Shown here: piece by piece, positions 2,128 to 52,571 of the stretch
How positions within the stretch are numbered: position 1 is the stretch's first letter
How the letters are laid out: every line of letters begins with the position of its first letter
Source of the DNA: a virus
Reading direction: 5' to 3' (one strand)
IMG/VR virus record: IMGVR_UViG_3300028388_003025
Span: 1-64,000 of that record
Length of the DNA: 64,000 bases
Notes under the pieces: generated by a model
What the model saw: the letters and a program-made list of their open reading frames with translations, nothing else
Databases searched by the model: none
Told to the model about the DNA's origin: nothing
Translations under genes and position numbers: made by a program

Positions 2128-2150
2128 ATAGTTTTAGTATGTGTTGCTTC

Positions 2151-2315: not shown

Positions 2316-2399
2316 TGTTTCATCTCCTTTTCTTTATTGTTTCAAAACGAAAGATTATAATATCAAATTTGATATGCTGATGAAATGATATAAGTCAAA

Positions 2400-2567: not shown

Positions 2568-2580
2568 ATTGTCCCCCTTA

Positions 2581-15366: not shown

Positions 15367-15398
15367 ATTCAAAAACTCGTACATGCTAGAATGCACAC

Positions 15399-23719: not shown

Positions 23720-26461
23720 ATGGATATTAAAAACATAACCGAGCTTGTTGCACAGCGCAATGACATTTCTCTTGATCAAAAGTTTAGACAGAAGGCAGAC
23801 GAAGGTGACCTTTCACTAATAAAACAATTCGCACTAGATCAGGAGATCACAACGGAAGATGTACATGTTCGTGCAATGTACTTATGTAACGACTTAGTCG
23901 ATTACTACTTTACTAGATTTGACGAAGCAGACTTGGATGCGATAGCAGAAATGCTACCTGGCCAGTCAGTTATTGTTGGACACAAGAGAGAGATGGCACC
24001 TATTGCTAGATTTTATAAAGCAGAGAAGGTAGTTCGTACTGATAAGAAATTCATTAACGAAGAGACTGGCGAAGATGTTCGTTGGATCAAAGCTTACTTC
24101 TATTGGCCAACTGGTGTAGAAGGTTCTGAAGATATGAGAAAGAAAATTGATACAGGTGTATGGAAAGAGATTTCTATATCATGGTCATATAAAAGATGCG
24201 TATGTTCTATCTGTGGCAAAGACATGTTACAAGGAATGGCTGCACTATTTGCTGACGAAGATGAAGATGTTTGTAAGCACAGACTTGGAAAACAATACGA
24301 AGGCAAACTTTGCTACGGTACTGTAAAAGATATTACAAAAGTATTGGAAGGATCTGTTGTATTTAAAGGCGGACAAAAATTTACTGAATTAGCTTTCGTA
24401 AGATCTGCTGATGGACAAGAAGTTAATATAGAAGATGCTGATCCTGAAGTAAGAGATCTAGCTAATGGTACAATGGAATTCTATAAACAAAGAATACTAG
24501 GCGCAAATCCTGATGGCGAACCAGCAAAGAATGAATTCAGACATATGGCAAGAGCTTTAGAAGAAGCTAAAGTATCTAGCCCAGTATGGTACAACAAAGA
24601 AATGAAAAGATTCTTCTGCGCAGAGTCAGACAGAGATATTGTTTCTTCTATAGTAGAAGGCGCAAGATTTGTTGAAGGTGTTTCTGAAACACAGGACTTC
24701 ATGCGTGGCGAGTCCGAGGGAATCGTATCCTGCTTGGCTGCTCCTGTGGATAAGCAGCCTGGCATCTATTTCAAACCAACTAAGCCTCATCGTAGATATG
24801 ACGAGTCAAATGAATACTACAAGGCCGACAGATTAAGAGAGCTAGTTGGCTCTTATATGTTGTCGCCAAAGTATGATGGTATTCGTCTTACTGTTCATAA
24901 ATCTGAGAACGGCGAGATCAGAATGTTTACTATGGGTGGCATGGAAGTTGCTCGCAAATTCCCAGCCATAGTAGAGCAAGTTAGAGGTTTTGATCCAAAG
25001 ACTTTAATCCTTGACGGTGAATTAGTTAGAATTAATAAAAACAAAAGAACAACTCATGCAGATGTTTCTTCATATATAAACAATCCTAACTCAGACATTG
25101 ATCACAGAACATTTACATTCAAAGCTTTTGATATGGTATATCTAAATGGTGAAGATGTTTCTGAGAAACCATTATCTGAAAGAGTTCATTTATTAAACTC
25201 TAATATTCAGACTACTGCAAATGTTAATAGAGTAGCTAACATGACTGCTCAAAGCGGTGAAGAAGTTGTTAGCATGATTGACCAAGTATCTTCTAGAGAA
25301 GGTGCTGTGATAAAAAAATCCGACGCGGCTTACGCAGAGGCTCGAACTTGGTATAAATGGAAGCGTCAAGCAGAATTTACTGCAAGAGTTTCTAAAGTTA
25401 ACAAGGTAGATTCTAGCAGATTTACATATAATATTTCTGTACTAGACGAGAAGGATAATTTGGTTGAAGTTGGCAGGACTTATCAGACTGGTGTTGAGGC
25501 AGAAGAAGGCGACAATATCAGAATGTCAGTTGCTTACATTAAAAAGAATGAAGATGGCTCATTAATGATTTCTGAGCCTAACGTAGTTTGCAAAATGTTT
25601 GAATCAATCGAGCCAGATTCTATGATTACTATAGAAAGAATCATGGAAGAGTATGACGAAGATCGTCAAGGCAAGATGAAGAAATGCCCTAAGTGTGGGA
25701 TTTCTGTTGCTGCAGATGCTAAGGTTTGTCCTAAGTGTGGATATAAATTCACTGAAGACACTGGTAAGACTGATAAGAAAACAGATGAGCCTAAGGAAGA
25801 ATCAGATGATTCTAAATCTATAGTTGATGACCCTAACAAAACAACTTATAGAATAGAACACCATTGGGATTCTGCAGAGCAATTCAGAATTCTTGAAATT
25901 AATAAAGAAGGAAGATATTTCAACGTCGTTATCCAAGGGGGGATCAACGACGATTTAAGCAAACGTTCAATGAAGCGTGTTGATTTACATGTTGACCTAT
26001 CTATTGATGATAACAGAAAAATCAAAACGAAAGAAAGACAGGACCTACCTGATAGAGCGTTTGCACTAGTATATATGAAGGATGGACAGAAGGTTCGTAA
26101 GCTTCCGTTACATAATAGCAAAGTTTCTTCTGGACATACCTGGACAGGCGAAGATGTTGAGAGAGCGCAGGTATCTTCTGCAGCTCAGTTGATCTCAAAG
26201 ATTAAAGATGCACCAGATGCCAAGATAAGAATGGCTAAGAAGCATATCGATAAACATCTTGAAGCCTTGAATGAAGAAGGTATAGAAACGAAGAAGCGAG
26301 AAATATGTAATGGAGAAGCCAAGGTCGAGGTCTTGACAACCGGCGAGATCCGTGTAGAATTAATTAACACTAAACGTTCAGGCATTACAGAGAGATTTCT
26401 CCTGCAGCCTGTACGAATCAATGGCAAAATTGATTACTACTACAAGGCTATCCAAAGCTAA
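23720..26461 (+). CDS. Prohead protease fused to ATP-dependent DNA ligase domain, zinc ribbon and C-terminal domain
   Basis: N-terminal VGH...EISISW..CSICG..LEGSVV; ligase motifs KYDG, LDGEL, AFD, EGAVIK, WYKWK; CPKCG x2. Confidence 0.85.
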   Translation: MDIKNITELVAQRNDISLDQKFRQKADEGDLSLIKQFALDQEITTEDVHVRAMYLCNDLVDYYFTRFDEADLDAIAEMLPGQSVIVGHKREMAPIARFYKAEKVVRTDKKFINEETGEDVRWIKAYFYWPTGVEGSEDMRKKIDTGVWKEISISWSYKRCVCSICGKDMLQGMAALFADEDEDVCKHRLGKQYEGKLCYGTVKDITKVLEGSVVFKGGQKFTELAFVRSADGQEVNIEDADPEVRDLANGTMEFYKQRILGANPDGEPAKNEFRHMARALEEAKVSSPVWYNKEMKRFFCAESDRDIVSSIVEGARFVEGVSETQDFMRGESEGIVSCLAAPVDKQPGIYFKPTKPHRRYDESNEYYKADRLRELVGSYMLSPKYDGIRLTVHKSENGEIRMFTMGGMEVARKFPAIVEQVRGFDPKTLILDGELVRINKNKRTTHADVSSYINNPNSDIDHRTFTFKAFDMVYLNGEDVSEKPLSERVHLLNSNIQTTANVNRVANMTAQSGEEVVSMIDQVSSREGAVIKKSDAAYAEARTWYKWKRQAEFTARVSKVNKVDSSRFTYNISVLDEKDNLVEVGRTYQTGVEAEEGDNIRMSVAYIKKNEDGSLMISEPNVVCKMFESIEPDSMITIERIMEEYDEDRQGKMKKCPKCGISVAADAKVCPKCGYKFTEDTGKTDKKTDEPKEESDDSKSIVDDPNKTTYRIEHHWDSAEQFRILEINKEGRYFNVVIQGGINDDLSKRSMKRVDLHVDLSIDDNRKIKTKERQDLPDRAFALVYMKDGQKVRKLPLHNSKVSSGHTWTGEDVERAQVSSAAQLISKIKDAPDAKIRMAKKHIDKHLEALNEEGIETKKREICNGEAKVEVLTTGEIRVELINTKRSGITERFLLQPVRINGKIDYYYKAIQS

Positions 26462-31129: not shown

Positions 31130-33235
31130 ATGACAACTAGAATAATTCCTGGAGTATATTACGAAGAGATAGAAGATAACGTAGTATCGATTAACCAGTT
31201 GCCTTCAGGCGTTGTTGGTATTGTTGGAACAGCAGACAAAGGTCCGCTTAATACTCCAACAAGAATAACTTCATGGGAGCAATTTATCCAAGTATTTGGA
31301 GGCTGGAGAGACGAGCTAACTGGGCCTGCGTCTTATCTTTCTGTTCGTAGACAGGGTGTTGAAGAAATCTATTTTTCAAGAATAGCTGGCTCAACAAAAG
31401 CAAAAGCAGCACAAGACTTCAATCAGGCAGGATCGGTAAAAGCTACTTACACGCTTCCGACTCGTGCTGGTGGAGCAGGCGTTGAATCAACGTTGACACT
31501 ACAAGATGATGGAGCTACTGATCTTATAACTATAACAGCTATAGAGGCTGGCGTTAGTGAAGACAGTATTCAAATCACAATCACAGACGGAACATCAGTT
31601 GGCTATAGCAACGTATCAATTGCTAAGACTGGATTCAATACAGAAACATATTCAAACGTAAGAGTTAAGACTGGCGACAGCAGAGACCTTACAGCACTTA
31701 TTAATAATAACTCAAAATTAGTTACAGCCGTAGCGCTTGCCGATGATGAAACACTAGCTAACATAGCAGCTACACCACTTGCTGGTGGCGCCGATTCTGG
31801 TTTGGATTCAATTAGCATTACTGCAAAACAAGCGGGCACAGAAGGAAACAGCATTACTGTTAAAGTTGATCATGGAGATACTGCTGGAAGAGTTAATGTA
31901 TTGATCACTGATGGTACTACTTCAGAGCTTTTTGAAGACGTTTATCTTGACGGTGTTGGAAATAGAAACTTAGTTGCAATAATAAATGCAACATCATCTC
32001 TTGTAACTGCAGAGCAAATTGCTACTACAGGCACAGGGCCAGATAACAATCCTCACACACAAGTGGCTACAGCTCTTGTTGGTGGAACAGCAGCAACTGT
32101 TGCATTCACTTTAACAGCTGCAGAATATGGTAAGTATGGCGATTCGCTGAAGGTTTCAATAACTGCAGCAATCTCTGGTGGATATAATATAATACTTGTT
32201 GATGCTACTACAAACGCTGTATTGGAAACATATACCAATGTACCGTTCGCAGATGTTGTTACTACAATAAATGCATCTTCTGAATATGTTGTTGCAACTG
32301 CAGGAACATTAGCGGCACTTGAAGAAGTTGATAGCGTTTATCTTGCAGCTGGAGACAACGGCGCAACTACTGTTGATTCTGATTATATTGGAACTGTAGA
32401 TGCTAACGGAAACCGAACGGGGCTATATGCACTATCAGGAGTTGATGTAATAACTATGCAGGTTGCAGCACAGCAATCTTCTACAGCAATTAACCAAGCC
32501 AATGTTTCAATATGTGAATCAGAGGGTGACAGAACTGCTATCATCTCTCTACCTAAAGATTCAACTCTTGCAGAGGTTAAGACTAAGGCAGCATTGACTG
32601 ATTCTAAAATCACTCAACAAGCATGGCCATGGAAAGTTGCTACACATCCAGTTACTGGTGAAGATCTAGTTCTTGCACCTGCTGAATTTTTAGCTGGAAC
32701 ACTATGTGCAAATAAAGTTAATTCATCTCCAAGCAACAAAGCAATACTTTGGGCTTATAGAGATTACAAAGAATTTGGTCCTAACTCTAATGAGATGGCT
32801 GAGCTAATACAAGCAAGAGTAGTTCCTTCCGCAAGAAAGAAATCTACACTTGATCCTACTGGAAGATTTGTATGGATGTCTGGACTTACAACAACGTCTT
32901 CTGTCCATAACAAAGACAAACAGATTTCTGTTATCAGACCATTCTTAAACATTGTTGAAGGAATCGTAGAAGGTCTTGACCCATACGTTTCTGAAAACAA
33001 TACACCATACTTGAGAGCAGCTGTTAGATATTCATCTAAGAGATATTTAGAGGGATATGTTAAGAGCGGAACTTTATCTAGCTATTCTCTTAAGTGTGAC
33101 GCAAGCAACAATACAGAAGAAGATTCTCGTAACGGTTATCTGTATGTTGATATTGATTTATATTTTACTTATCCAGCAGACTTTATAACTCTTAGAGTTA
33201 AAAGAGACCCTGCCGGAAATATTGAAGCAGCATAA
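31130..33235 (+). CDS. Contractile tail sheath protein
   Basis: PGVYYEE, GIVGTADKGPLNTPTRITSW..F...FGG, C-terminal PADFITLRV. Confidence 0.93.
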   Translation: MTTRIIPGVYYEEIEDNVVSINQLPSGVVGIVGTADKGPLNTPTRITSWEQFIQVFGGWRDELTGPASYLSVRRQGVEEIYFSRIAGSTKAKAAQDFNQAGSVKATYTLPTRAGGAGVESTLTLQDDGATDLITITAIEAGVSEDSIQITITDGTSVGYSNVSIAKTGFNTETYSNVRVKTGDSRDLTALINNNSKLVTAVALADDETLANIAATPLAGGADSGLDSISITAKQAGTEGNSITVKVDHGDTAGRVNVLITDGTTSELFEDVYLDGVGNRNLVAIINATSSLVTAEQIATTGTGPDNNPHTQVATALVGGTAATVAFTLTAAEYGKYGDSLKVSITAAISGGYNIILVDATTNAVLETYTNVPFADVVTTINASSEYVVATAGTLAALEEVDSVYLAAGDNGATTVDSDYIGTVDANGNRTGLYALSGVDVITMQVAAQQSSTAINQANVSICESEGDRTAIISLPKDSTLAEVKTKAALTDSKITQQAWPWKVATHPVTGEDLVLAPAEFLAGTLCANKVNSSPSNKAILWAYRDYKEFGPNSNEMAELIQARVVPSARKKSTLDPTGRFVWMSGLTTTSSVHNKDKQISVIRPFLNIVEGIVEGLDPYVSENNTPYLRAAVRYSSKRYLEGYVKSGTLSSYSLKCDASNNTEEDSRNGYLYVDIDLYFTYPADFITLRVKRDPAGNIEAA

Positions 33236-33247: not shown

Positions 33248-33964
33248 ATGGGTTACAACTTTTCTAGGGAAGCACAGTTAAGGGAATTAGACAGATTAAA
33301 AGCCCCTCTAGTTGGTAAGGATGTCGTAATTGAGATTCACGTACCGACAGACGCTGCTGGAAATCCATCCACAACTGGTGGAACTACAATGATTTACAAG
33401 GGACAGTATACAGACGTTAGTAGATATACCAACTCTCGTATTGTTGAATATGTTGAGACTGGGTATTCTACTCCGCTTAACATTGCAACAAACTATAGTT
33501 TTGGTGGAACGCTTGCTAAGGGTGACGTTGATGATGTTTTATCTCAAATAGCATTTGGTACTACAAAATTAACAAGATCTGGTGGACGTTTATTTAATAG
33601 TCCTGGCGATGCAGGAAACGATGTTCCTCCAACAGAAACTATTCTTGATGGTGATAGACCATATCTTACAAACGCTACTGCGTATGACAACTGGCAAAGA
33701 TCTTCACAGTCAGCAATGACTATCAATCCTTATATCTTAAAGATATTTAAGGCTTATACTGGTAGTGCAGGTGAAGATACTGTAAGGTCTGGAACCCCAT
33801 CTGGCGGAGAGTCAATTGATTTCTCTAAAGATTATGGTAGGGTTCATATCTATGAAGAAGTAGTATTCTCAAACTTCAGAGCAGTTTCAAATGCTGGATC
33901 AGACATATCAACTCACGTAGTTGATTGGTATGCATCTGGTTGGGAAATACAAGAACTAGCTTAA
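33248..33964 (+). CDS. Tail tube protein
   Basis: Directly after sheath; strong RBS. Confidence 0.7.
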   Translation: MGYNFSREAQLRELDRLKAPLVGKDVVIEIHVPTDAAGNPSTTGGTTMIYKGQYTDVSRYTNSRIVEYVETGYSTPLNIATNYSFGGTLAKGDVDDVLSQIAFGTTKLTRSGGRLFNSPGDAGNDVPPTETILDGDRPYLTNATAYDNWQRSSQSAMTINPYILKIFKAYTGSAGEDTVRSGTPSGGESIDFSKDYGRVHIYEEVVFSNFRAVSNAGSDISTHVVDWYASGWEIQELA

Positions 33965-34107: not shown

Positions 34108-34455
34108 ATGGCAGAAGAAAAGAAGACAGCAAAGAATCCGGTTATAGAATTACCAATAAGCAAGAAGAAGATAGAGCTACGAATAGCAACTGGTAAGGAC
34201 GAGGTCAAGGCTAACAATGTTAAGCCTATAAAGGCTGGCGATCCAGAATCTTATGTTGCAAATAGACGTGCCTTGCTTTGCTCTACTGTTGTATCTGTTG
34301 ATGGTGAAGCTGTTGCTTTTGTTTCTGATAATCTTGACGAGTTACCGCTTAGAGATAGAGGCGTTCTAGAAACTGCATACCAAGCAATCAATGAAGTAAC
34401 TGAGCAAGACGAATCTGCAGTTAAAGAGGTAGTTAACCCTTTTTTCGGAAAGTAG
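34108..34455 (+). CDS. Tail assembly chaperone (G-like)
   Basis: IELPISKKKIELR..TGKDE, LPLRDR; GGAGG RBS before ATG 34108. Confidence 0.8.
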   Translation: MAEEKKTAKNPVIELPISKKKIELRIATGKDEVKANNVKPIKAGDPESYVANRRALLCSTVVSVDGEAVAFVSDNLDELPLRDRGVLETAYQAINEVTEQDESAVKEVVNPFFGK

Positions 34456-34898
34456 TCGTAATCGGGGATGTCGCTGGTTTCGGCTTAAGTGAAATACTAG
34501 ACCAAAGTTTAAAAACAATAGAGAGCTTATACATAGCTTCTGTTGACTATGGTAATCTTGAAGGCAAAGGTCAACAACAAGAAGCTGAGCAATCTCCTGA
34601 GAATGTCATAGACGAAGCAATCCTTGCTGGTGATATAGTAAAGATAAAAGACGGCGATCCTGATGTTGAAAAAGAAATAAAGAAATGCATCGATAGTTAT
34701 GAGAATTTAGGAATAGAAGTTGATCAAAAGATGCGCGAAGAAATATCTAAGAAGTTTTACTATAGATCATCTAACCCAGATGCCAACATGATAGTAGGAA
34801 CAAGCATGACTCTTGCAGAACTTAAGTCACAAACTCCTGTTATAGATAATAAGGAGAACTTTGAAGCAGGTAAAGCACAGGTTCAAGCACATAATTAA
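34437..34898 (+). CDS. Tail assembly chaperone -1 frameshift extension (GT-like)
   Basis: Slippery CCCTTTTTTC at 34437-34446; -1 frame open to TAA 34896-34898. Confidence 0.8.
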   Translation, partial: PFFRKVVVIGDVAGFGLSEILDQSLKTIESLYIASVDYGNLEGKGQQQEAEQSPENVIDEAILAGDIVKIKDGDPDVEKEIKKCIDSYENLGIEVDQKMREEISKKFYYRSSNPDANMIVGTSMTLAELKSQTPVIDNKENFEAGKAQVQAHN

Positions 34899-34913
34899 TG
34901 CTATAATTAACCC

Positions 34914-37900
34914 ATGGCTTTTGATAATATCGATGAACTTCAGTTACGCCTGCAACAACTTGAGGGCAAGATATATGGCGGCACAAGTGGCGAAGACATA
35001 TTAGATCTTTTTGAAGAGAAGGAAGAACTTGAAGGAAAGCTAGCGCGTGCAAAGTCTTTTATCTCAAATACGACTGACTCTGATTATCCAAATCTATATT
35101 TAGAAAATACTATATACGATCAAAACAAAGCAAATCTGCAGAAGATGATCTCACAGCAGGAGACAGAACTAATTCATGCTGATAATTCTTTTAAGTCAGA
35201 ATCATATAAAGAATTTTTAAGAAAAGATATTTCCACAAAAAAGAAAACTATAGACAAGATGATGGGCAAGAGCGTTCCACTAACAAAAGAGTTTAGTAAT
35301 TTTTATGGCGAAGACATTTCTATAAAAAATAAAACACATTCATTAATAGATACGCACGGAATAGGCAGGGCCTATCAAAGGTTTCTTAAAGATATGGAAA
35401 CTGGAAAGGTCTCAAAAATAGATTCTGCTACTGGGATTGCATATGATAAAAACATGCTAACTCCTGCAGACATATTTAAAGATGCAAGATCTGCGCTTGC
35501 TGGAGCTGTAACTAACATGTCTGGCAAGAATGATGACATTGTCCCAATAATAATGGCTAGATCAAATGCATTTGATTTAGCAACTATAACAGAGGCTTTT
35601 ACTGACCCGTATTCTAAGCAATCAAGAATGGTCGACATGATAAGAGATGGTAGCGTGAAGCTAGCTGGCGATCCAATATTAGTTAACAAGTTATCTTTAT
35701 ACAACGCAAACAAGCTTGAAAGGCTTAATGATACTGAGATAGAGTTCTTCAGAATGATGGAAGGGAATAGGTTGAAGTTTACTCCTATCGGAGCCAGGGC
35801 TGCAATGTTTCCTGAAGGCAGAGCAACATATGTCAAGAATAGAATAACAAAAGGGAAAAATATATCAGCAATAGGATTGTCTAGACTAAGGGGGTTAGAC
35901 AGCGCTGCATCATTTTCTGGCGCGTCAAATATAATCGACGAGTCGGTGACAGCCTATAACGAAGTATTTAAATACATTGCAAATAATTTCTTTGGCAACG
36001 TTGGCGCAAAGGTTGAAAGAGTTGATAGGCTTTTTGACGAAATATTTTATGGCAATCCAGAAGATGGGGCAAAAAGATTAACGAAGTTTATATCCAGAGA
36101 AAGCATTGCCCAGCCAATAAGAGAGAAGATAATTGAATCAATATATGGATACAAGCCATCTAAGAGACAAATAAGGGCTGAATATAAAAGCATATCAGAG
36201 GCTGTAATATCCTGGGTTAGAGGAGAAAGAGTATTTCCAAATACAAAAACTATAGGGACAGGATCTGAGCCAGGCAAGCAGTATATAACTGGAGATTTCA
36301 GGACAGTAATGTCTAGGTCAGCAATGAGAAAGAAAGCTACACAGAAGTTTATACCTACAGGTCACGACATGAGAGCGTTTATTAGCGCTAGAGAGTCGCA
36401 GCTTATAGAGAAAAAATTCCTGCTAAAAGAAGATAAGTGGAGTTTGTGGACTGGAATATTTACTAAAGATACTGACGAGATAAAAGAGGTTACTCAAAAG
36501 ATATTAAAAGAAGAACCATATGCTGCTCTTGGTGGTGGATTCAAATCGGCAAATAGAACTATAAACGAAATAATAAGAGCTTCATTCATGGCGGAGTCAT
36601 CGCTAGACATTGACGAAGCTAGGGATATATTCCTTGCCAGCAGAGCTGCAAACTACTCTCAAGATAGTAAGAAGTTCGCTTCATATGCAAGAAGAACAAG
36701 AAGCATGGGATACGATGATTTCGTTTCTATGTCAGAAAGATTTAGAACATATAGAGGTCGCGGGGATTCATTAAGAAATTTACAAAGACTAACCCTTCAA
36801 GGCTTTAGAAATATGAATTCATTAGAGTCTTCTGCTAAATCATATGGTTATGATGCGCTTATAAGTAGAATAGCAAAAAGTTTAGATAGAGATTTAATAT
36901 TAAAGACAACAGAGTCAGACGTAGGAATGGATATACTTGATAGTGTGAAAGGTATAAACCTTAGACAAGCTGCAGTTGAGCTGCTTTATGATCAACTGTC
37001 AGCATCTGGAGTGTCATTAAAGAATGTTAAGTCAAAGAGGGCAGAGCTTTCAAAGACAACATTGCACGGCATGATAAACCCACTACTGCTTAGAGACAGG
37101 GGAACGAATAGATTTGCTGGAAGAATGTTGTTCGATATTCCTGACAGGGCCGCAGGGCAGGTTGGTGATTTTGCTTCTGAATATTTAAAGATATTTAAAA
37201 ACAACCCTGGATTATTTTCATCAATGATGGATGTGTCTGGCTTAAACTTAATGGCGCAGCCAATGAACAAGGCTGGCGGTTTTACAAAACAGAATATAAA
37301 CATGCAGCTTAACGATGCTAAGGATTTTATTTCAAAGTTTATTGATCCATCATCTGGTAAGGCTAGGCAAAATATGACGTCTAGAGACAAGGTTATGTAT
37401 CGTATGTTCATAGGCCAAAGTGGATCACAAATGATTGAAGACATAGATAAATATAAGCAAAGCCTTTCTGAGGCAAGGCCAGCAATAAATGATATTGTGG
37501 CAAATGCAAATAGAAATAATAAGCTAAAAAGAATAATGACAAATCTATCTTCAATCGATAAGGCTGATCTAAACAGGATAGATTCGACATATTCTGAAAT
37601 GGTTGACAACATGAAGCTTCAGGTATCACTGCTTGGTGGCGACCCGAATTCAAAAGAGTATTCAGATTTTATAGTTGATGAATCTGCGCGGGCATTAAAC
37701 AGAATAGTAATGGGTTCTAACATGGACAATATATTTACTGCCAAGCTAAAGATGGTGCTTGATGAAAACGATTTAAAGGTTGGCAATAGGCTTGACGTTA
37801 GACGAAACACATATAGCAATCTTAGGGATAAAAGGCTAATAGGTTTTGACTTAGAAACACACGGAACAAAATATTCTCAGGGCGACGTTTACCAATTTGG

Positions 37901-40900
37901 AGCTACAGTAAGAAGAAAGGGAAAGACTACTAACTTTGCCGTAACATTGCCATTCACGTTTAAGGAAGGCGGGAAGAGTTCTGCACTTGTTGGGGCATAC
38001 ACTGGAACACAAGGGCCATCAAAGAAAGATCTTAGAAGATTAAGATCATTAAACAAATATATATCTGGACTTGATCCAGATCTAGCTGGAACATATTTTG
38101 CAGCTTACAATGCAGAGTTCGACTTAAAGAAGCTAGACTCCTGGATAAATGCTGTCGAGGGTTCTGCAGATGGACTTACTGCTGACCCATACTATCAAGA
38201 GTTAAAGAAGTTTCAGAAGTTTGTTGGCAGAGCCACTAGAAGAGGGAAGACAATCGATGTATTTGATGTTGTAAAAAATGTCAGCATAAATGACAAGTCA
38301 TTTAGGACGTCTACTTCTCTATCGCAAACAAAGGTAGCGTCAATGCTTGGCATAATGTTCTCTAATGCTCATGACGCTGGTGCAGACACGAAGGCAATGA
38401 TAGATGTTTTACTTGAGCTAGAAAAGAAACATGGGAACTTGTTTTCATATGGTGCACATAAGGGGAATAGATTTGTTGGCTCGGTAGAAGCTGGGGCAGG
38501 CTTCCTAGGAACAATGACAAAGATGTATGACATTGCAGATGAAGTTGCTAAGAGGCATGGGTCAAGCAATTACGAAAGAAGGCAATTCATAAAGATGATT
38601 GAAAAATCAGCTAGGTCAACAATGACAAAAGCTGTAAGGATTGTGTCAGAGAAGTCTATGTTCGAGCACGGCAGAGGCGCCAATGTTGGCGACAGCGTGA
38701 TGGATATGACCAAGGCCAGAAGGGTAGAGGTTGCACCAGAATCTGTTGGCGCAATAAAGGAAATGCTTATTGATATAGCGAGTATAGACAATAAAGATTC
38801 CTTTAGAGCTCTATTAGACAGGGGCTTCAATAGTGGGGTTAACAAGCTTTATCAAAAGGCGTACCAACTGGTAGAGGGTGATAGAGAAGTTGTTAGCCTA
38901 ATGAAGTATCTGCCTACTAGAAGAACAAAAACAAGTAGCAGTCAAGTAATACAAGAAGTGGTTAAGAGGATAAGATCTGGAGCATTAACCAACACAAGGC
39001 AAATAAAGGGTGCAATGCCTAGGATTATATTTGATCTATACCTTGAAAGCATAAAGCCAAAGAAGGAATTAAGGGCGACACAGTCATTTATAAAAGGTTC
39101 ATACACAGTAATGAAAGGTATTGGCAACTCAATAATGCGACGCGGAATCCCGACAGACGCAGAGGTGGCAGAGAATGTCAGAGCCCTTAGGGCCAATAAG
39201 GCTTACTCATATATATATAAAACTGCTGGAGATATAGAAGACAGGCTAATGGCTGCTTCAAGAAAGTATATAGAACCAATAACAGAAACAATAATGAAGC
39301 CTATCAATTTCTTTGCTGATAAGGAGTATGAAAGATTCGTTTCCTCTAAAGGATTTGGGAAGATAGACGATTTACTATCAGCATCTGGAAGCGCTGATGA
39401 TATGCAGAAAGTTTTAGAACATAGAGCTAGACTACATAGGAACGCTTTTAAATACAAACATATAAACACTGCATTCAAGGGAGTGAAGAGTGGACTTGGT
39501 AAAGTTGGTAGAGTGATTGGGCTTGGTGGAAAGCTAGGATTAAATATTCTAGACGCATACCAATTTGCAGATTCTGTATCAATGTTGTTTGGAAAGTCTG
39601 TGCACTTAAAGGGAATGCGCCCTGTACTTATAGATTCTAAAGAGGCGGCTAGACATGCCGTTATGTCTGGTGCGTATGAAAGCGAAAAAGACTTTAATGC
39701 ACAGAGAATATATGGAGCATTTTGGACAGCAAAAGGAATAAAGATGGGCGGCACAGGCGTTAACATATTCCTAAGAGGAGCAGGCAAAGGTTTAGCCAAG
39801 GGAGCCCTAAAAGGTCTTGGTAAAAAAACAATATCAAAATTCGGTATAGGTGCTGGGCTTGCTATGATACCAGTCGTAGGCCCATTTTTAGCTGGTGCAT
39901 ATGGTATTGCAATGGGAATATCAATGGCTATAGACATTGTTGGCCTTGGCCAAATGTTCATGGGTGGCCAAGGCTTTTCTACTCTAGATATATTTAGGAC
40001 AGCTACAGCATATAAGTATGATTCACTAGGTCGAGAGTACACAACTAGGGAGTGGTCTCTCTGGGCAAAGATGCGTGGTCACACTGCGCCTGGATATGCC
40101 GACGACTCTTCAAGCGGTATAAAGCTGCTTGGTGCAGCAGCAGCAATAGCTGCATTCAATGCTCATGGATCAATGCGTACACATAATGTCTCTGATATAG
40201 AAGACTTAATGGGTGCTACAGCAAAAAGAGCATTGATAAAAGACCAGTCAAGCGCACTGCTTAATAGCCTAGAACAAGTTTTCAAAGGGGGAGTCGAAAC
40301 AAAAGACAAGAAAGCTTTTAGGTCAATGTTAATTGATACACAGCGTCGCCTAAAGAAAGAGGTAGCAACAGGATTAATACCTGAATTTGAAGGTACCTCA
40401 ATAAGGCGTCAGTTAGTTAAAATAAACAGGATGCATAAAGCTGGGTATGAAGGGGGCACAGTTAGCGCTGAGCTAGTAAGAACACTTGCCGATGCTAAAT
40501 ATTACATGATGTTCGATAAATACAGAGGCATGAGCATCAAGCAGCGAGACTCGTTGAGACAAGTAATGTTCTCTGAAGATCTAAAGCCTTATCTAAACGA
40601 ATATAAGCATGCATTGTCAATGTCTGTTAACTATCTAACATCAGGAAGTGAAGGAAAGATAGCAGATATATTTAAAGATAATAATATGCTTGGCGAAGTA
40701 GCCTCAATTATTGGCAAGCGTGGAGACAAGAGAATAGATTCTAGTTCGTATGAACATATGGTAGATCTAGTTAAGTCTCAGTTAAAGGCAAAGACTGATA
40801 AGTTACAGAGAGTTCAAAACTTAGCAACTCAAGGCAATGTTGGCTATGAGGCAAACTTACTGAGAAAGGCATACATAAGTTCTGGGTTTTATAAGTCAGA

Positions 40901-43900
40901 TGCAGTTAAGCAATTAAAAGGAACTATAAACCTTTATGATATGACTGGCGAGTTTGGCAATCCAGGAGAATTTAAACGCTTTGTTAGTCAGTATAAAAAC
41001 GTTAAGACTGCAGGGAAATGGCTTGCAACTAGTCTGTGGTTCACTCCAGTAGATAAGCTTGCTGAAGCATATTATATTGGATCGCTACCTGAAGAAGACA
41101 GAGATGAAAGGCAGAGAGCCGCTGCTGCAAAGATAATGACGTTTGGCCCACTACAGGGATTCAATGTTCTAACTGCTGGGGCAAATAAGAATTCAAGCAT
41201 TCAGACTGTAATGATGAATATGGATGCTGTTGAGGGTGTAAAGAATCCATTAGTTGGCATAATGATGTCATTTTACTTTGGCCAAAATAATGACATATAT
41301 TCAAAGAGCTCAAGATATAAGTCAGGGCCATTCAAGGATGGAGGAATGCTTAGTGGGATTAAGTTAGCTACTGCAGAGGCGCTTAATACAGCAGCAACAA
41401 CTACGCTTGTTGTTAAGGGTGCGGAAGTTGCTGGTGACTTTCATACTTCTAAACTATCAAAGCTAGACAATCCTACTGTATTGCTTTCATACCACAAGAA
41501 CCGTATGCACTCATTTTATTCTGAAGGAAGCAATGTTAAGAAATTGAGATCACAGATAATAAAACTAAAACAATCAATCGTTGAAGGAAAGGTTGATGGA
41601 GGAGAATCTAAGAAGATAATTAAATATTATGACAAGATGATAGCTGACTTAGATAATTTAGATTATTCAAAATTCAAGAAAGCAATTGATAAAGACTTTG
41701 CACAGATGACTGATATGATAAAGACTAGGTATAAGGATGCGAATGAACATATATTAACAAGCACTTTCAAAGAGAACATGGATGATAGTACGAAGTATAT
41801 GTCGTCTTTCTATAAGTCATTTACAATTAGAACAAGACCAGAGGGCATGCCATCTACTACCGCTACAATAATGACACAAACTATTATGAAAGGCTTAGGC
41901 CTTTCGCCTAGAGATAATCAAGCAATTAATGCTGCATTCAATTTAGGCAGCATGGCATATATGGCGCTAGCATCTGCGACAATAGCTAATGCTAATTATG
42001 GATACGACACGTATGCTACGAATGCTTATATAGATGGATTAAAAGCCTTGCATTATATGGAAGAAAATATTGCTGGAGATATAGCAAATATTCCTCTTGC
42101 AAACTTGCCAATGAATTTAAGAAAGTCACTAGGCTCATTTTTAGATGAGAGAACCAGAGAGCTTAATAAAAGCAGAACAGGAAAATTGTTAAGGCTACCT
42201 GGAATTAATAAGTCACAAATGTTCTGGCAGGACGTAATGGGCCTTGGTCTATCAAGGGGCAATAAGAAACTTACAACAATGCAAGCTGCAACTAGAGCTG
42301 GTTATACTAGAGAGCAGGTTTTAAAAATGATCGCCCAGTATAGATCAGAAGCTCTAATGTCTCCGACCAAGAAGGTTTTATCGTATTCTGCAGAGGAAGG
42401 TAAGTTGTCTAAGCTTGGCATTGACAATAAGATGAGGAAAAAGTTAGGCCTTGATGAATATACTTTGGATAAGATGGAAAAGCTTGCGCAGTCAGGATTG
42501 ATTTCAGATCCAGGAACCTTTGTTAATAAGCGCGCATTGTTTTCATTACAGAAGAAGAAAGTCCACGGAAGCCTAACCTTCGCTGAAAAGAAATTGTATA
42601 GGGAACTAGTTGGTGCGTATACTGGCGGAGTAAGACAATATGAAGGTTATGAGAAGTTGTTTTACAAGCCAAGATATGGACTAGAAATGTTTGCAAAAGA
42701 GATTGAAATAAATAGCATATACTCAAATGCAGTTAACCCAAGCGGAAGTCTAGACTTTGCTTCGCTTCTTCAGGACGCAAGCATTAAAGAGCAACAGACA
42801 TTTATGAATACAAATATGTGGACGCCGCTTCAAGATGACAATACTTCGCTTGCAGTTGAAGGCCACAAAAACTTTGTTGTTTTGTCATCACTTGCATTGT
42901 CTCGTGATCCAGACTTTAGAAAAAGATTTGAGAATATATCAAAGAAATACAACGTGGTAACTGGAACAACTGGCAAGGGTGGAATGAGAGACGCAATAAA
43001 CATAGCCTCTTTCCTAATGCATAAGAAAGGCGATTATAAGGGAGCTGCAGATATATCAGACAGGTTCTGGTTTGGAGATGCGAATAGAGCCGTTGAAGAA
43101 GCTAGGATGTTTAATCTTGGCAGTGAATACCACGACCTATGGAAGTCACAAATGAATGACGCAGAAGCTATGCGTAAGACATTATCTGATTCTGAGTTCT
43201 ATGATTTTATGGTTGAGTCATCTACATATATTGCATCTAAAGATAAAGCGCTAGCAAATTTCTTCGTTGGTTCAGATGACAAAATGCTTAAAGAGGTTAA
43301 GCGCCGAATGTTCTTTAAGTTCGGTGAAGACAAGAAGTCAATGAGGATAATGGAAGACCCAGTAACTGGCAAGGTAATATTTAAACCAGGCGGACGAAAG
43401 ACGAGAAAGAGATTCGTATTCGATAGGCGTAGAAATATATTTAAAAACTATAGCTACTCAAGCGGGTTTAATGGCGCTGGGTTTAAGCCAGATAGCTATC
43501 ATAACAAGATGGTTCAGGCATACCTCAAGATAGATGAGAACTTGCTGTATACTGCACAATCATATGTTATAAGCCTAGATAAGGACGATGTAGTTCCGAA
43601 AGAAATGAAAAATGCGCACATCGTAATCGAGCAGGGCAACGCAGAACACTCTCTTGCCTTTAATCCGGAAACAAATGAATGGCATGTTCAGGTAAGAAAT
43701 ATAGACCCACAACTAAACTATGAAGAAAAGAACAGGTTCTTTACTCGCCACAACTATAAAAAACAGCTTACTGCTGAAGCGAAAACTCTTGTATCTATGA
43801 AGACAGATTTACAGGAGCTTTCTAAAGCGGTATCTCGTGGGTCAGTAAATGAAGAAGGTGAATTTGAATACGTTCCAGGCAAGTCTCCTCTATCTAAAGA

Positions 43901-44210
43901 TAAGGGGCATGCAGCAAAGATGCAGCGAGTATTTAACAGATTAAAGACAGAGGCCAAATACGTAAGAGATGATAATAGCAGACGAACAGAAATGGAGAAT
44001 AGCCAAGCTGCTGTGAAATTAATGATAGAAAAATTGAGACAAATTGGAGGAATAAACAAGGAATCAAAGAAGCTAAAAAAGATGGCTAATAAATATTGGC
44101 TAGATTTTATGTCTTTTGATTACTATTCTAAAGACAGCTTAGAACAACTTATAACGACAGACATATCAGAAATAAGCTATAATAGTCTTAACAAGGTGGT
44201 TGTATATTAA
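34914..44210 (+). CDS. Giant tape-measure-position protein with embedded DEDDh 3'-5' exonuclease domain
   Basis: Follows G/GT chaperone; Gly/Ala hydrophobic segment ~39480-39990; FDLET, YNAEFD, HDAGAD motifs. Confidence 0.8.
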   Translation: MAFDNIDELQLRLQQLEGKIYGGTSGEDILDLFEEKEELEGKLARAKSFISNTTDSDYPNLYLENTIYDQNKANLQKMISQQETELIHADNSFKSESYKEFLRKDISTKKKTIDKMMGKSVPLTKEFSNFYGEDISIKNKTHSLIDTHGIGRAYQRFLKDMETGKVSKIDSATGIAYDKNMLTPADIFKDARSALAGAVTNMSGKNDDIVPIIMARSNAFDLATITEAFTDPYSKQSRMVDMIRDGSVKLAGDPILVNKLSLYNANKLERLNDTEIEFFRMMEGNRLKFTPIGARAAMFPEGRATYVKNRITKGKNISAIGLSRLRGLDSAASFSGASNIIDESVTAYNEVFKYIANNFFGNVGAKVERVDRLFDEIFYGNPEDGAKRLTKFISRESIAQPIREKIIESIYGYKPSKRQIRAEYKSISEAVISWVRGERVFPNTKTIGTGSEPGKQYITGDFRTVMSRSAMRKKATQKFIPTGHDMRAFISARESQLIEKKFLLKEDKWSLWTGIFTKDTDEIKEVTQKILKEEPYAALGGGFKSANRTINEIIRASFMAESSLDIDEARDIFLASRAANYSQDSKKFASYARRTRSMGYDDFVSMSERFRTYRGRGDSLRNLQRLTLQGFRNMNSLESSAKSYGYDALISRIAKSLDRDLILKTTESDVGMDILDSVKGINLRQAAVELLYDQLSASGVSLKNVKSKRAELSKTTLHGMINPLLLRDRGTNRFAGRMLFDIPDRAAGQVGDFASEYLKIFKNNPGLFSSMMDVSGLNLMAQPMNKAGGFTKQNINMQLNDAKDFISKFIDPSSGKARQNMTSRDKVMYRMFIGQSGSQMIEDIDKYKQSLSEARPAINDIVANANRNNKLKRIMTNLSSIDKADLNRIDSTYSEMVDNMKLQVSLLGGDPNSKEYSDFIVDESARALNRIVMGSNMDNIFTAKLKMVLDENDLKVGNRLDVRRNTYSNLRDKRLIGFDLETHGTKYSQGDVYQFGATVRRKGKTTNFAVTLPFTFKEGGKSSALVGAYTGTQGPSKKDLRRLRSLNKYISGLDPDLAGTYFAAYNAEFDLKKLDSWINAVEGSADGLTADPYYQELKKFQKFVGRATRRGKTIDVFDVVKNVSINDKSFRTSTSLSQTKVASMLGIMFSNAHDAGADTKAMIDVLLELEKKHGNLFSYGAHKGNRFVGSVEAGAGFLGTMTKMYDIADEVAKRHGSSNYERRQFIKMIEKSARSTMTKAVRIVSEKSMFEHGRGANVGDSVMDMTKARRVEVAPESVGAIKEMLIDIASIDNKDSFRALLDRGFNSGVNKLYQKAYQLVEGDREVVSLMKYLPTRRTKTSSSQVIQEVVKRIRSGALTNTRQIKGAMPRIIFDLYLESIKPKKELRATQSFIKGSYTVMKGIGNSIMRRGIPTDAEVAENVRALRANKAYSYIYKTAGDIEDRLMAASRKYIEPITETIMKPINFFADKEYERFVSSKGFGKIDDLLSASGSADDMQKVLEHRARLHRNAFKYKHINTAFKGVKSGLGKVGRVIGLGGKLGLNILDAYQFADSVSMLFGKSVHLKGMRPVLIDSKEAARHAVMSGAYESEKDFNAQRIYGAFWTAKGIKMGGTGVNIFLRGAGKGLAKGALKGLGKKTISKFGIGAGLAMIPVVGPFLAGAYGIAMGISMAIDIVGLGQMFMGGQGFSTLDIFRTATAYKYDSLGREYTTREWSLWAKMRGHTAPGYADDSSSGIKLLGAAAAIAAFNAHGSMRTHNVSDIEDLMGATAKRALIKDQSSALLNSLEQVFKGGVETKDKKAFRSMLIDTQRRLKKEVATGLIPEFEGTSIRRQLVKINRMHKAGYEGGTVSAELVRTLADAKYYMMFDKYRGMSIKQRDSLRQVMFSEDLKPYLNEYKHALSMSVNYLTSGSEGKIADIFKDNNMLGEVASIIGKRGDKRIDSSSYEHMVDLVKSQLKAKTDKLQRVQNLATQGNVGYEANLLRKAYISSGFYKSDAVKQLKGTINLYDMTGEFGNPGEFKRFVSQYKNVKTAGKWLATSLWFTPVDKLAEAYYIGSLPEEDRDERQRAAAAKIMTFGPLQGFNVLTAGANKNSSIQTVMMNMDAVEGVKNPLVGIMMSFYFGQNNDIYSKSSRYKSGPFKDGGMLSGIKLATAEALNTAATTTLVVKGAEVAGDFHTSKLSKLDNPTVLLSYHKNRMHSFYSEGSNVKKLRSQIIKLKQSIVEGKVDGGESKKIIKYYDKMIADLDNLDYSKFKKAIDKDFAQMTDMIKTRYKDANEHILTSTFKENMDDSTKYMSSFYKSFTIRTRPEGMPSTTATIMTQTIMKGLGLSPRDNQAINAAFNLGSMAYMALASATIANANYGYDTYATNAYIDGLKALHYMEENIAGDIANIPLANLPMNLRKSLGSFLDERTRELNKSRTGKLLRLPGINKSQMFWQDVMGLGLSRGNKKLTTMQAATRAGYTREQVLKMIAQYRSEALMSPTKKVLSYSAEEGKLSKLGIDNKMRKKLGLDEYTLDKMEKLAQSGLISDPGTFVNKRALFSLQKKKVHGSLTFAEKKLYRELVGAYTGGVRQYEGYEKLFYKPRYGLEMFAKEIEINSIYSNAVNPSGSLDFASLLQDASIKEQQTFMNTNMWTPLQDDNTSLAVEGHKNFVVLSSLALSRDPDFRKRFENISKKYNVVTGTTGKGGMRDAINIASFLMHKKGDYKGAADISDRFWFGDANRAVEEARMFNLGSEYHDLWKSQMNDAEAMRKTLSDSEFYDFMVESSTYIASKDKALANFFVGSDDKMLKEVKRRMFFKFGEDKKSMRIMEDPVTGKVIFKPGGRKTRKRFVFDRRRNIFKNYSYSSGFNGAGFKPDSYHNKMVQAYLKIDENLLYTAQSYVISLDKDDVVPKEMKNAHIVIEQGNAEHSLAFNPETNEWHVQVRNIDPQLNYEEKNRFFTRHNYKKQLTAEAKTLVSMKTDLQELSKAVSRGSVNEEGEFEYVPGKSPLSKDKGHAAKMQRVFNRLKTEAKYVRDDNSRRTEMENSQAAVKLMIEKLRQIGGINKESKKLKKMANKYWLDFMSFDYYSKDSLEQLITTDISEISYNSLNKVVVY

Positions 44211-45265: not shown

Positions 45266-45272
45266 TTATTCC

Positions 45273-50182: not shown

Positions 50183-51060
50183 TGCAAGGATATACTTACG
50201 AAGGTGCAATATCAGACCTAACTGCAATGGACTCAATGCCAGGGACTTATACTCGTCGCGGAGATGTTCAAGGCAAAGTCCATAGTATTGCAAAGAACGC
50301 TACAACAAGCATCAGAGCCTTCAAGGGCTTTGTGGTTAGCGATAGGCCTTACACAAACTCTGATGGTATTGCATTAATGAAGGTAAGGAATCCCAGGTCG
50401 CTAACAATAGAATGTAAGTTATCTACACCTATAGGCGGTAGAGATAGAGTAAGGGACTACACTCCTACAAAGGGAGATGTTGTTTACTGTATTCACTGCA
50501 TGGATGATGACTATCCAATTATTTTCGCATTTCCTAATGGACACTCAGGTAATAGGCAGTGGGCAAGACTTGAGCCTGGCGAAGAGCGTGATGTTTACAG
50601 AAATAAAACATATATGTGGCATAAGATAAATGGTAGTTGCAACTTTAATATTCGTAATAATTATTTATTAGAAGTTGCCAATGACTTTAAATCTATAATC
50701 AAAAACAATTACACACTTGAAGTTAAAGATACTATCAATATATCTTCAGTAGATAGGACCTGGATATACGCAGGCTCATTCCTTAATCTTAAATCAGCTA
50801 AGAATGTTAATATAAGATCAGAGTGGTCTTCTATAAATATGCGTGCAGCTAAAAACTTTTGGGCCCAGATAGATGGAAAAGTTGAGCTGAAATGTGCTAA
50901 TATACTACTAGGGGCTAGTGAAGGACATGAGTTGGCGCTTAAAGGAACGACAGCGCAGCTTGAGTTTAATACTCATACGCATATAGGTAATTTAGGTTTT
51001 CCTACTGCACCACCAACTGTCCCAATGAATGCGTTAGCATCGGAGGTAAAAGTTGTATAG
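50182..51060 (+). CDS. Baseplate central spike (gpV/gp5-like)
   Basis: OB-like PTKGDVV, beta-helix repeats, C-terminal FNTHTH motif. Confidence 0.85.
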   Translation: MQGYTYEGAISDLTAMDSMPGTYTRRGDVQGKVHSIAKNATTSIRAFKGFVVSDRPYTNSDGIALMKVRNPRSLTIECKLSTPIGGRDRVRDYTPTKGDVVYCIHCMDDDYPIIFAFPNGHSGNRQWARLEPGEERDVYRNKTYMWHKINGSCNFNIRNNYLLEVANDFKSIIKNNYTLEVKDTINISSVDRTWIYAGSFLNLKSAKNVNIRSEWSSINMRAAKNFWAQIDGKVELKCANILLGASEGHELALKGTTAQLEFNTHTHIGNLGFPTAPPTVPMNALASEVKVV

Positions 51061-51466
51061 TGTCCCTAATGATATAATGCTTGACACAGAAACGAACGAA
51101 CTTACGTTTAATGCTCGTGGCGATCTAATGACAGCAGCTGACCTCGTTGGTGAAGATAATAAGATAAATGCAAGCGTTAAGCAATGGGTTAGAAATAGAA
51201 TTTTACTTGATTACTTAAATGGACACCCAGAGCTTGAGAGTTTAAATAACTATGTAAGCGAATTAAATACAGACAATCTAGAGGTCTCAACGCTTTCTAC
51301 TATAAATAAGTATATAGAAACTGCGCTTCTTGAGAATGAGTTCATAGAATCTGTATCAGTATCAACATCTCAAGATAAGGAAGACTTATCTTTGATATTA
51401 AATATAGATTATGTTGTATATGCGTCAGCATCTACTGATAGTTTACAAGCAATTTGGGAGGTTTAG
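51053..51466 (+). CDS. Baseplate wedge protein (gp25/gpW-like)
   Basis: Position; GDL.., IETALLENEFIESVSV. Confidence 0.7.
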   Translation: MYSVPNDIMLDTETNELTFNARGDLMTAADLVGEDNKINASVKQWVRNRILLDYLNGHPELESLNNYVSELNTDNLEVSTLSTINKYIETALLENEFIESVSVSTSQDKEDLSLILNIDYVVYASASTDSLQAIWEV

Positions 51467-51467
51467 G

Positions 51468-52571
51468 ATGGGATTTTTACCAATAGGGCTGGAGCTTTTA
51501 ACTTATGACCAGATAGTCAACGATATAGTTGATGTATTTGATGCAGAGGACAAACATGCTACAGACGCAAGAACAATAGGATCAGTTCAAAGAACATATA
51601 TAGAAGCTATAGCGTTACAAATATTTAAGATACATAACAGACAAAGAAAATTAATGTCTCGTCCACACTGGGCATCGGCATCTGGTAAAGATCTAGATGA
51701 TTTAGCTGCAGGATATGGGCTCACAAGGGAAGATGCATCAAAATCTTCTGGTCCATTAACCTTCTATAGAAGCACAGCAACACAGCCAATCCTAATTCCT
51801 GCAGGAACAAGGGTAGTTAGACCAGCCTCTGGTAGCGTTGAGGAGCTTGGATACTATACATTGTCAGACGTATATCTAGGCATTGGCGTAGCGTCTCAAA
51901 CAGTTGATGTCGAGGCGGAGTCTACAGGAGAAGTTGGAAACACTGGCATAAGAACAATTACACAAACTAGCGTAGCGGGAATCACTGGCGCTTATAACCC
52001 ATCTGAATATACTAATGGCAGAGACATAGAAAGTGATGATGAGTTAAGAAGAAGATTATCATTGCTGTTTGCATCAATGCAGAAAGCAACTATTGATGCA
52101 ATTAAATTCGCTGCATTCTCAGTGGCTGGAGTTGACTCTGTTGTTATATCAGAGAATGATCCATACCCTGGATATATAAAAGTATATACTTCAGACGAGA
52201 ACGGTATTCAAACGCTGAGCACAAAGCTTGCCGTTGAGGATGCTATAGAGGAATATAAAGCTGCAGGCATTACTGTTGTTGTAGACAAGCCTCAAATAAG
52301 ATATGAAGCAATAACTGTTCAGGTCAATATAGTAGATCCAACATTATATGTAGATGTAAAAGACGAACTTGAACTATCTCTAACTAATTGGCTTAATCAG
52401 TTTGCCATGGGAGAAGCATTGTTAATATCAGAGATAATTGCAAAACTTCATGAGAGTTCAAATGTTTATAATGTTGAGTCAGTAGTTGCACCAGCGACAG
52501 ACATAGAGCCATTAAACAATCAAATAATAAGGCCATCTTCAATTAATGTGGAGATAACAAATGCCGCTTAA
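51468..52571 (+). CDS. Baseplate J-like protein
   Basis: ASGKDLDDLA, IPAGTRV, TGEVGN, GRDIESDDELRRR; start after GGAGG. Confidence 0.92.
   Translation: MGFLPIGLELLTYDQIVNDIVDVFDAEDKHATDARTIGSVQRTYIEAIALQIFKIHNRQRKLMSRPHWASASGKDLDDLAAGYGLTREDASKSSGPLTFYRSTATQPILIPAGTRVVRPASGSVEELGYYTLSDVYLGIGVASQTVDVEAESTGEVGNTGIRTITQTSVAGITGAYNPSEYTNGRDIESDDELRRRLSLLFASMQKATIDAIKFAAFSVAGVDSVVISENDPYPGYIKVYTSDENGIQTLSTKLAVEDAIEEYKAAGITVVVDKPQIRYEAITVQVNIVDPTLYVDVKDELELSLTNWLNQFAMGEALLISEIIAKLHESSNVYNVESVVAPATDIEPLNNQIIRPSSINVEITNAA

Follow-up and report, generated by a model that had tools for sequence, protein, structure and literature searches.

Here we analysed the giant open reading frame (ORF) that occupies the tape-measure slot of an uncultured phage, known from the IMG/VR virus record IMGVR_UViG_3300028388_003025, together with the DnaQ-like exonuclease domain that is embedded in its product. 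The window, that is, the whole stretch of DNA under analysis, comprises the first 64 kb of this 79,120-bp record, whose topology is linear and whose completeness is estimated by CheckV at 72%. From about 19.7 kb onwards the + strand carries a canonical myovirus late module, and the ORF in question, which encodes 3098 amino acids (aa), is the largest of the tail module and stays open over 9.3 kb in a genome of 38% GC. An initial annotation, made by reading the DNA without database searches, had noticed in this ORF the motifs ExoI, ExoII and ExoIII in the order known from DnaQ and RNase T, with the catalytic residues present, and had assigned them to a DEDDh exonuclease domain. The coordinates of the domain, of the ORF and of the neighbouring genes are collected in Table 1.

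The DnaQ-like exonuclease domain

The three motifs were found in frame within the ORF and in the order that had been described, with the first catalytic residue, D979, encoded from position 37848 as annotated. The distance from D979 to D1070 is 91 aa and that from D1070 to H1153 is 83 aa, and the five catalytic residues (D979, E981, D1070, H1153 and D1158) are all present. The ExoII sequence YNAEFD fits the N-x2-F-D pattern through N1066, F1069 and D1070, and ExoIII has the form H-x4-D, with His and not Tyr, which is the arrangement that defines the DEDDh subclass. A permissive regular expression for each motif matched once in the six-frame translation of the 79-kb record, all of these occurrences falling here and in the proper order, and when the ORF was shuffled 20,000 times, the ordered triple never arose.

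Scans of the whole ORF with hmmscan against PHROGs and Pfam were blank, and the domain could be detected only after excision. The excised domain (37818-38438) matched phrog_192, 'DNA polymerase exonuclease subunit' (E 5.9e-12, 46.6 bits), the match extending over aa 4-204 of its 207. Because this match was seen in the excised domain only, whole-protein scans can miss embedded domains of giant phage proteins. Six of the seven NCBIfam matches were of the DnaQ type, a DinG-exo model among them, with the epsilon subunit of DNA polymerase III (Pol III epsilon) aligned to the ExoIII half (E 3.5e-5) and PolC to the half that contains ExoI and ExoII (E 8e-5). The phmmer search of the PDB gave weak scores (E 0.4-0.9) and yet paired motif with motif: ExoI and ExoII were aligned with the PolC exonuclease of Thermotoga maritima (2p1j), where the counterpart of ExoII is VAHNANFDYRFL (HNANFD), and the ExoIII sequence HDAGAD was aligned with NAHDALADVRA of Exonuclease I (4rg8). 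Phage clusters annotated as 'DnaQ-like 3'-5' exonuclease' were also among the neighbours of the domain in ESM features (0.94).

We also built a custom hidden Markov model (HMM) of 180 positions from 51 genuine DnaQ-like segments, which were kept out of about 120 IMG/VR loci collected by a DNA pattern for F-D-x-E-T-T-G. This model scored 49.7 bits against aa 953-1182 of the query (E 2e-17 with Z=1), and its positions 4-177 covered aa 972-1172 from end to end with one insertion of 22 aa. The highest score was 11.0 bits among 5000 plain shuffles and 30.8 bits (median 12.4) among 5000 shuffles that kept the motifs, which argues that the similarity extends beyond the motifs themselves. An origin of the three motifs by chance is ruled out by their uniqueness in the record, by the shuffling of the ORF and by an HMM score that lies above all decoys. 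When the domain was placed in a MAFFT alignment of 49 sequences (alignment A1), the columns of D979, E981, D1070 and H1153 were invariant and those of N1066, F1069 and D1158 almost so, the identity of the domain to the 48 other sequences being 11-23%.

AlphaFold (AF2) run on alignment A1, which is itself made of DnaQ-family sequences, predicted an RNase H-like alpha/beta fold with a five-stranded sheet and the DnaQ order of elements, beta1-3, alphaA, beta4, alphaB and beta5 (predicted local distance difference test, pLDDT, 82.1; predicted template modelling score, pTM, 0.81). The top matches of this model in Foldseek and VIA-align were DEDDh enzymes only (Z 12-13.7 over 150-172 residues, with root-mean-square deviations of 3.3-4.3), and included 3'hExo, the DinG exonuclease, Cas2-DnaQ, PolC, RNase T, ERI, TREX, ExoI and epsilon. 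The DEDDh identity proposed by the initial annotation is hence borne out by phrog_192, the custom HMM, NCBIfam, the columns of alignment A1 and the structural matches, and the predicted fold is the DEDD fold that had been anticipated. Taking these results together, aa 969-1175, within the N-terminal third of the protein, almost certainly constitute a divergent DnaQ-type DEDDh exonuclease fold with an intact two-metal site. The families nearest to it (epsilon, PolC, DinG-exo, ExoI and phrog_192) act on DNA.

As to how the domain is integrated in the ORF, its GC content, its GC content at third codon positions (GC3) and its codon usage lie within the spread of equal-sized segments of the ORF. 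Nothing points to a nested gene, as no in-frame start led by a Shine-Dalgarno sequence was found ahead of the domain, and we saw no sign of a recent insertion or of a chimeric assembly, the composition of the domain matching that of the rest of the ORF.

The tape-measure slot and its neighbourhood

The order of tail sheath, tube, G/GT frameshift pair, 3098-aa ORF and baseplate wedge genes is what places the ORF in the tape-measure slot. It begins 16 nt after the stop of GT, and five ORFs without assignment separate it from the baseplate wedge genes. Each element of this context that the initial annotation had relied upon was recovered: the G/GT chaperone pair in front of the gene, the tape-measure position, and the hydrophobic segment rich in Gly and Ala. 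The last of these is the only membrane-type segment of the ORF, lies downstream of the exonuclease and resembles a Gly zipper. On this positional and compositional basis we consider it very probable that the ORF encodes the tail tape measure protein. The ESM features of aa 1400-2100 were uninformative. Searches of 400-aa pieces of the ORF against Pfam and PHROGs detected no second domain, and the motifs DxDxD and HExxH are absent throughout its length, so that about 2900 aa carry no recognisable domain; where polyvalent proteins are defined by two or more effector domains, one was recognised here.

There are no cysteines across the 3098 residues of the ORF, an absence that could relate to an unfolded passage through the tube or the envelope. 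At the level of expression, a TATAAT hexamer ends 6 nt before the ATG of the 3098-aa ORF (34902-34916, GCTATAATTAACCCATG) and also before that of the gene at 45273 (45261-45275, GATATAATTATTCCATG). Both starts lack a Shine-Dalgarno sequence, which together with the hexamer is the pattern expected of leaderless transcripts, and sites of the GGAGG type precede other late genes.

Table 1. Features of the exonuclease domain, of the ORF that contains it and of the surrounding late genes (positions in the window)
Feature	Position	Strand	Remarks
3098-aa ORF, tape-measure slot	34914..44210	+	exonuclease is the sole recognisable domain; no Cys, DxDxD or HExxH
DnaQ-like DEDDh 3'-5' exonuclease domain, aa 969-1175	37818..38438	+	HMM-aligned core aa 972-1172
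ExoI IGFDLETHG, aa 976-984	37839..37865	+	D979 codon 37848-37850, E981 codon 37854-37856
ExoII AAYNAEFDLKKL, aa 1063-1074	38100..38135	+	N1066; catalytic D1070 codon 38121-38123
22-aa insertion, aa 1089-1110, after the ExoII helix	38178..38243	+	compared with phage DnaQ-like domains; an additional helix in the model
ExoIII HDAGADTKAM, aa 1153-1162	38370..38399	+	H1153 codon 38370-38372, D1158 codon 38385-38387
Gly/Ala-rich hydrophobic block, aa 1600-1690	39711..39983	+	36% Gly+Ala; hydrophobic core aa 1640-1683
913-aa ORF with LigD/NHEJ-type ATP-dependent DNA ligase domain	23720..26461	+	between portal and scaffold/capsid genes
Tail sheath	31130..33235	+	phrog_23, E 2e-46
Probable tail tube	33248..33964	+	by position only (between sheath and chaperone genes), without family match
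Tail assembly chaperone G, 115 aa	34108..34455	+	start follows GGAGG; ORF listing starts at earlier ATG 34093
Slippery heptamer T TTT TTC, -1 frameshift	34440..34446	+	perfect slip site; yields 263-aa GT, stop 34896-34898
Baseplate wedge genes	51053..52571	+	gp25-like 51053-51466 (phrog_120, E 1e-5); gpJ-like 51411-52571 (phrog_6, E 4e-58)

The late module opens with an ORF that weakly matches terminase and with the portal gene (phrog_3753, E 7e-39). It also encodes a scaffold-like protein of coiled-coil type and the major capsid protein (phrog_3922, E 3e-74), as well as candidates for head-tail connectors, alongside the sheath and the ORF in the tube position. Directly upstream of the packaging genes lie a gene for a peptidase of the M16 family (insulinase-like; PF05193, E 9e-12) and then one for a CAAX/Rce1-like membrane protease (PF02517, E 1e-10), which together span 14152-15938 (+).

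An unusual trait of this phage is the 913-aa ORF of the head-assembly slot, where the ligase domain of the type involved in nonhomologous end joining (NHEJ) occupies aa ~379-612 (PF01068, E 3e-25; TIGR02779, E 5e-29) and is accompanied by a double zinc ribbon. A homologue that is 53% identical and keeps the nucleotidyl-transfer motif KYDG was found in a related contig (L003:6090-8858). The N-terminal ~220 aa of the ORF belong to phrog_16951 and exist in capsid relatives of this phage as stand-alone ORFs of 235-310 aa beside the portal genes, as expected of a protein of the protease or scaffold slot that is built into proheads; no direct match of these ~220 aa to a protease family was found. 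The adjacent ORF in the scaffold position (26492-27115, +; 207 aa) is coiled-coil-like and has at its C-terminus a zinc-ribbon match (aa 157-201) that resembles the ribbon of the ligase ORF.

A word-indexed search of clusters of 5.8 billion proteins, which covered near lengths for aa 900-1250 and 1-3098 and, for the domain alone, lengths of 126-403 aa with E up to 10, returned only the query for both the domain and the ORF. An exhaustive phmmer search of 1.84 billion representatives returned the query and two repeat proteins (a tetratricopeptide-repeat, TPR, protein and a protein with tandem repeats of ~90 aa), which we read as noise. There was no tblastn match in GenBank phages for either the ORF or the domain, and scans of IMG/VR and of JGI metagenome contigs with peptide patterns turned up nothing related to the ORF or its domain, to the sheath or to the baseplate protein. 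Relatives of the capsid protein, at 26-76% identity, are present in IMG/VR and in metagenome-assembled genomes (MAGs) of Calditrichota and other groups. The contig with the 76%-identical capsid protein is L003, which stops just past the capsid gene, and the more distant capsid relatives have other tail modules, and neither a homologue of the 3098-aa ORF nor a DnaQ-like match was detected in these relatives. Among prokaryote assemblies, the closest capsid relatives are in two Calditrichota MAG contigs, L153 (JAJRSO010000057.1, 40% identity) and L155 (JABGPL010000007.1, 30% identity), whose tail genes are unrelated to those of the present phage. These contigs give a slight hint as to the hosts of the head lineage.

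Proposed delivery at infection and the alternatives

Considering domain, ORF and context as a whole, we lean towards the explanation that the phage has a tape-measure-borne DEDDh exonuclease which is delivered at infection and trims 3' DNA ends, and we regard it as the best one and as somewhat more probable than not. The tape measure of long-tailed phages has its C-terminus at the tip of the tail and is expelled before the DNA, and its hydrophobic segments join the envelope channel. With the C-terminus at the tip, the N-terminal part would leave last, beside the leading DNA end. In such a scenario, the tape measure would exit the tail before the DNA, the hydrophobic block at aa 1600-1690 would help to build the envelope channel, and the N-terminal portion, being the last out, would put the exonuclease at the cytoplasmic mouth of this channel, where the domain would refold and remove nucleotides from 3' ends. 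The favoured substrate would be the ends of the incoming genome, where 5' complementary tails of a terminal repeat could be exposed and anneal to form a circle. Alternatively, the 3' ends might be cleaned for the sealing of the circle by a ligase, or, less probably, 3'-ended nucleic acids of host defence might be attacked. The components of this explanation differ in strength. For the delivery of the domain into the host and its activity at entry, which we infer, the arguments are about evenly balanced, and the identification of the phage genome ends as the substrate is tentative and somewhat doubtful.

The ligase of the 913-aa ORF is a possible partner of the exonuclease. Mycobacteriophages have been reported to circularise their genomes by NHEJ (Pitcher et al. 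2006, as cited in PMC12848934). One may envisage a two-enzyme kit for end joining carried by the virion, in which the tape-measure exonuclease would resect and a capsid-loaded ligase of the LigD type would seal the entering ends, the ligase gaining access to the capsid through its fusion to a portal-adjacent head-assembly protein of the protease or scaffold slot. Such an arrangement, attractive but speculative and in our view rather improbable, would allow circularisation without host recombination or host ligase and an escape from end-directed defences such as RecBCD.

Several points weigh against the explanation of a delivered exonuclease and have to be set beside it. At the level of the domain, the Pfam model RNase_T (PF00929) gave 17.2 bits, below its gathering cut-off of 24, with the ExoIII half alone aligned, and a genome-level search of the record with PF00929 gave no match; we read the sub-threshold score as reflecting divergence from that one model, the membership of the superfamily resting on the other tests. 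An AlphaFold model from the single sequence was poor (pLDDT 35), and the fold obtained with AF2 is partly circular because alignment A1 was made of DnaQ-family sequences, so that we treat that model as a consistency check rather than as independent proof of the DEDDh fold. As both ORF and domain are without homologues in the collections searched, conservation of the active site under selection cannot be demonstrated. At the level of the ORF, no tape-measure model of Pfam, PHROGs or NCBIfam matches the entire sequence or its 400-aa pieces, a result that does not exclude membership, since tape measures fall into many unrelated families. There are also physical objections, as a folded domain of ~23 kDa in three copies fits poorly in a tube lumen of ~4 nm and an active exonuclease beside packaged DNA is hazardous; for both reasons the virion may contain the domain in an unfolded or sequestered state. 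Finally, the record, being linear and 72% complete, does not define the genome termini, and no Ku gene was found in it.

Among the alternatives, the one that survives best is that the delivered exonuclease is a counter-defence effector, which would destroy 3'-ended host immune nucleic acids or host DNA ends and not act upon the phage genome. Its targets could be, for example, the multicopy single-stranded DNA (msDNA) of retrons, single-stranded DNA made by DRT systems, or guide or signalling oligonucleotides with a free 3'-OH. This explanation shares the evidence for delivery, namely the gene order of the tail slot, the hydrophobic block and the phrog_192 match, and an orphan and fast-diverged domain, with 11-23% identity to phage DnaQ domains, would fit an arms race. 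Enzymatic domains directed against host defence are numerous in proteins that are delivered with phage DNA (polyvalent proteins, PMC5512222; PMC7824862), but DnaQ/DEDD domains are absent from the catalogue of polyvalent proteins (PMC5512222). The nearest families are, moreover, exonucleases of DNA proofreading and repair and not oligoribonucleases, and no defence-related context is present. The mechanism of DEDDh enzymes is another obstacle: they require a free 3' end, which cyclic signals do not have, so these are poor substrates, and the degradation of oligonucleotide signals that the initial annotation had put forward is a weak proposal where cyclic signals are concerned. We regard a counter-defence role as unlikely, although as the likeliest of the three alternatives.

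Less likely again is that the module is structural, binds DNA ends or is a relic, that is, an exapted DnaQ fold that does no nuclease work in vivo. It might serve as a tow hook on the leading 3' end of the genome, act as a spacer or plug of the tail, or be the neutral relic of a replication gene captured in a single lineage. The ORF being a singleton, purifying selection on the catalytic residues is not demonstrable, a working exonuclease would endanger the packaged DNA beside it, and membership of the replication-type phrog_192 is what the capture of the gene of a polymerase-associated exonuclease would leave. However, the five catalytic residues together with N1066 and F1069 have been kept despite an identity of 11-23% elsewhere, when relics usually lose such residues, and the composition of the domain is fully ameliorated to that of the ORF, which points to a long residence.

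The least probable alternative is an unconventional ruler in which the tape measure would be the C-terminal part from about aa 1550 and the N-terminal ~1550 aa a cleaved cargo that acts in the producing cell, for example in replication or packaging, or never enters the virion: a contractile tail built on 3098 aa would, at the usual 1.5 Angstrom for each residue, reach ~460 nm and be unusually long, a tape-measure family is recognised nowhere in the ORF, and the 79-kb record yielded no further DnaQ-like gene, so that this could be the only such exonuclease of the phage, but no internal start led by a Shine-Dalgarno sequence and no stop divides the two parts, the part missing from a record that is 72% complete may contain a replication module that has an exonuclease of its own, and the N-terminal enzyme part of the P23-45 tape measure was detected in virions (PMC10770324).

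Comparison with known systems

Enzymatic domains on tape measures are known in several forms. Some tape measures carry peptidoglycan-hydrolase or metallopeptidase domains, as in Pb2 of T5 and in mycobacteriophage TM4. The present ORF has in common with these, and with polyvalent proteins, an enzymatic domain on a protein that is, or in the present case would be, ejected from the virion during infection, and it differs from the T5 Pb2 and TM4 type in that their domains target the cell wall rather than nucleic acids. In polyvalent proteins, 2-15 effector domains are combined with processing peptidases, and both tape measures and DnaQ/DEDD domains are missing from their catalogue (Iyer et al. 2017, PMC5512222); unlike them, the present ORF has a single recognisable domain and no HExxH. 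The initial annotation had assumed that tape measures typically carry muralytic domains if they carry any. This assumption was too narrow in view of the RNA polymerase of P23-45 gp96 (PMC10770324) and of the endonuclease of Tme (PMC11126660), and a nucleic-acid enzyme on a tape measure is accordingly less unprecedented than had been stated. What stood is the unusual character of the cargo, as we found no published description of a DEDDh cargo and, in the literature searched, no paper in which a DnaQ/DEDD exonuclease is connected with a tape measure.

Tme is a tape-measure-related effector of the contractile injection system (CIS) of Streptomyces davawensis and ends in a C-terminal EndA-like endonuclease (Nagakubo et al. 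2024, PMC11126660). As in the present ORF, a large tape-measure-like protein combines transmembrane segments with a nuclease domain; it is loaded in a contractile tail-like particle, as the present protein would be. In contrast to the present ORF, the nuclease of Tme is C-terminal and of the beta-beta-alpha-Me type, and the protein belongs to a bacterial CIS and not to a phage, acting in the release of the producer's own DNA.

The DEDDh enzymes that served for comparison (Pol III epsilon 1j53/2gui, PolC 2p1j, DinG 8zef, Cas2-DnaQ 8h18, ExoI 1fxx, RNase T and TREX1/2) are, like other known members, stand-alone proteins of 150-530 aa or parts of polymerases and helicases that work in replication, repair and RNA maturation. 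The present domain shares with the phrog_192 proteins and with these cellular exonucleases the fold, the order and spacing of ExoI, ExoII and ExoIII and the five catalytic residues. It departs from them in being embedded in a tail protein of 3098 aa, in its identity of 11-23% and in the 22-aa insertion after ExoII.

The closest parallel is architectural. In the Thermus phage P23-45, the 5002-aa tape measure gp96 has in its N-terminal ~1100 residues a virion RNA polymerase with the motif DFDGD (Chaban et al. 2024, PMC10770324). The protein was detected in virions and is active in vitro, and a location at the tape-measure pore, where it would act on the entering DNA, has been proposed for it; tape measures of the gp96 type also occur in P74-26, G20c and TSP4 (PMC10770324). 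Like gp96, the present ORF is a giant protein of the tape-measure slot with an N-terminal nucleic-acid enzyme upstream of the membrane segment or segments, and in both cases an action on phage DNA at the tape-measure channel is proposed, which for the present ORF we infer. The likeness goes no further than architecture, as gp96 is a two-barrel RNA polymerase and the present ORF has no DxDxD anywhere and a DEDDh exonuclease instead, P23-45 is a siphovirus and the present phage a sheath-bearing myovirus, and no sequence similarity was detected between the two proteins. Presence in the virion and activity are experimental results for gp96 and predictions for the present ORF.

An enzyme borne by the tape measure is hence already known, and a DEDDh exonuclease would be a new class of cargo, by which a nuclease that is ready for use probably reaches the site of DNA entry together with the phage. 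Such a cargo raises the questions of how a folded enzyme of ~23 kDa would travel through a tube of ~4 nm, and of whether a 3'-5' exonuclease on incoming DNA would serve end processing for circularisation or counter-defence. If a catalytically complete DEDDh enzyme rides in the same position in a contractile phage that is unrelated to P23-45, the tape measure would be a more general vehicle for nucleic-acid enzymes, and these would act within the first seconds of infection.

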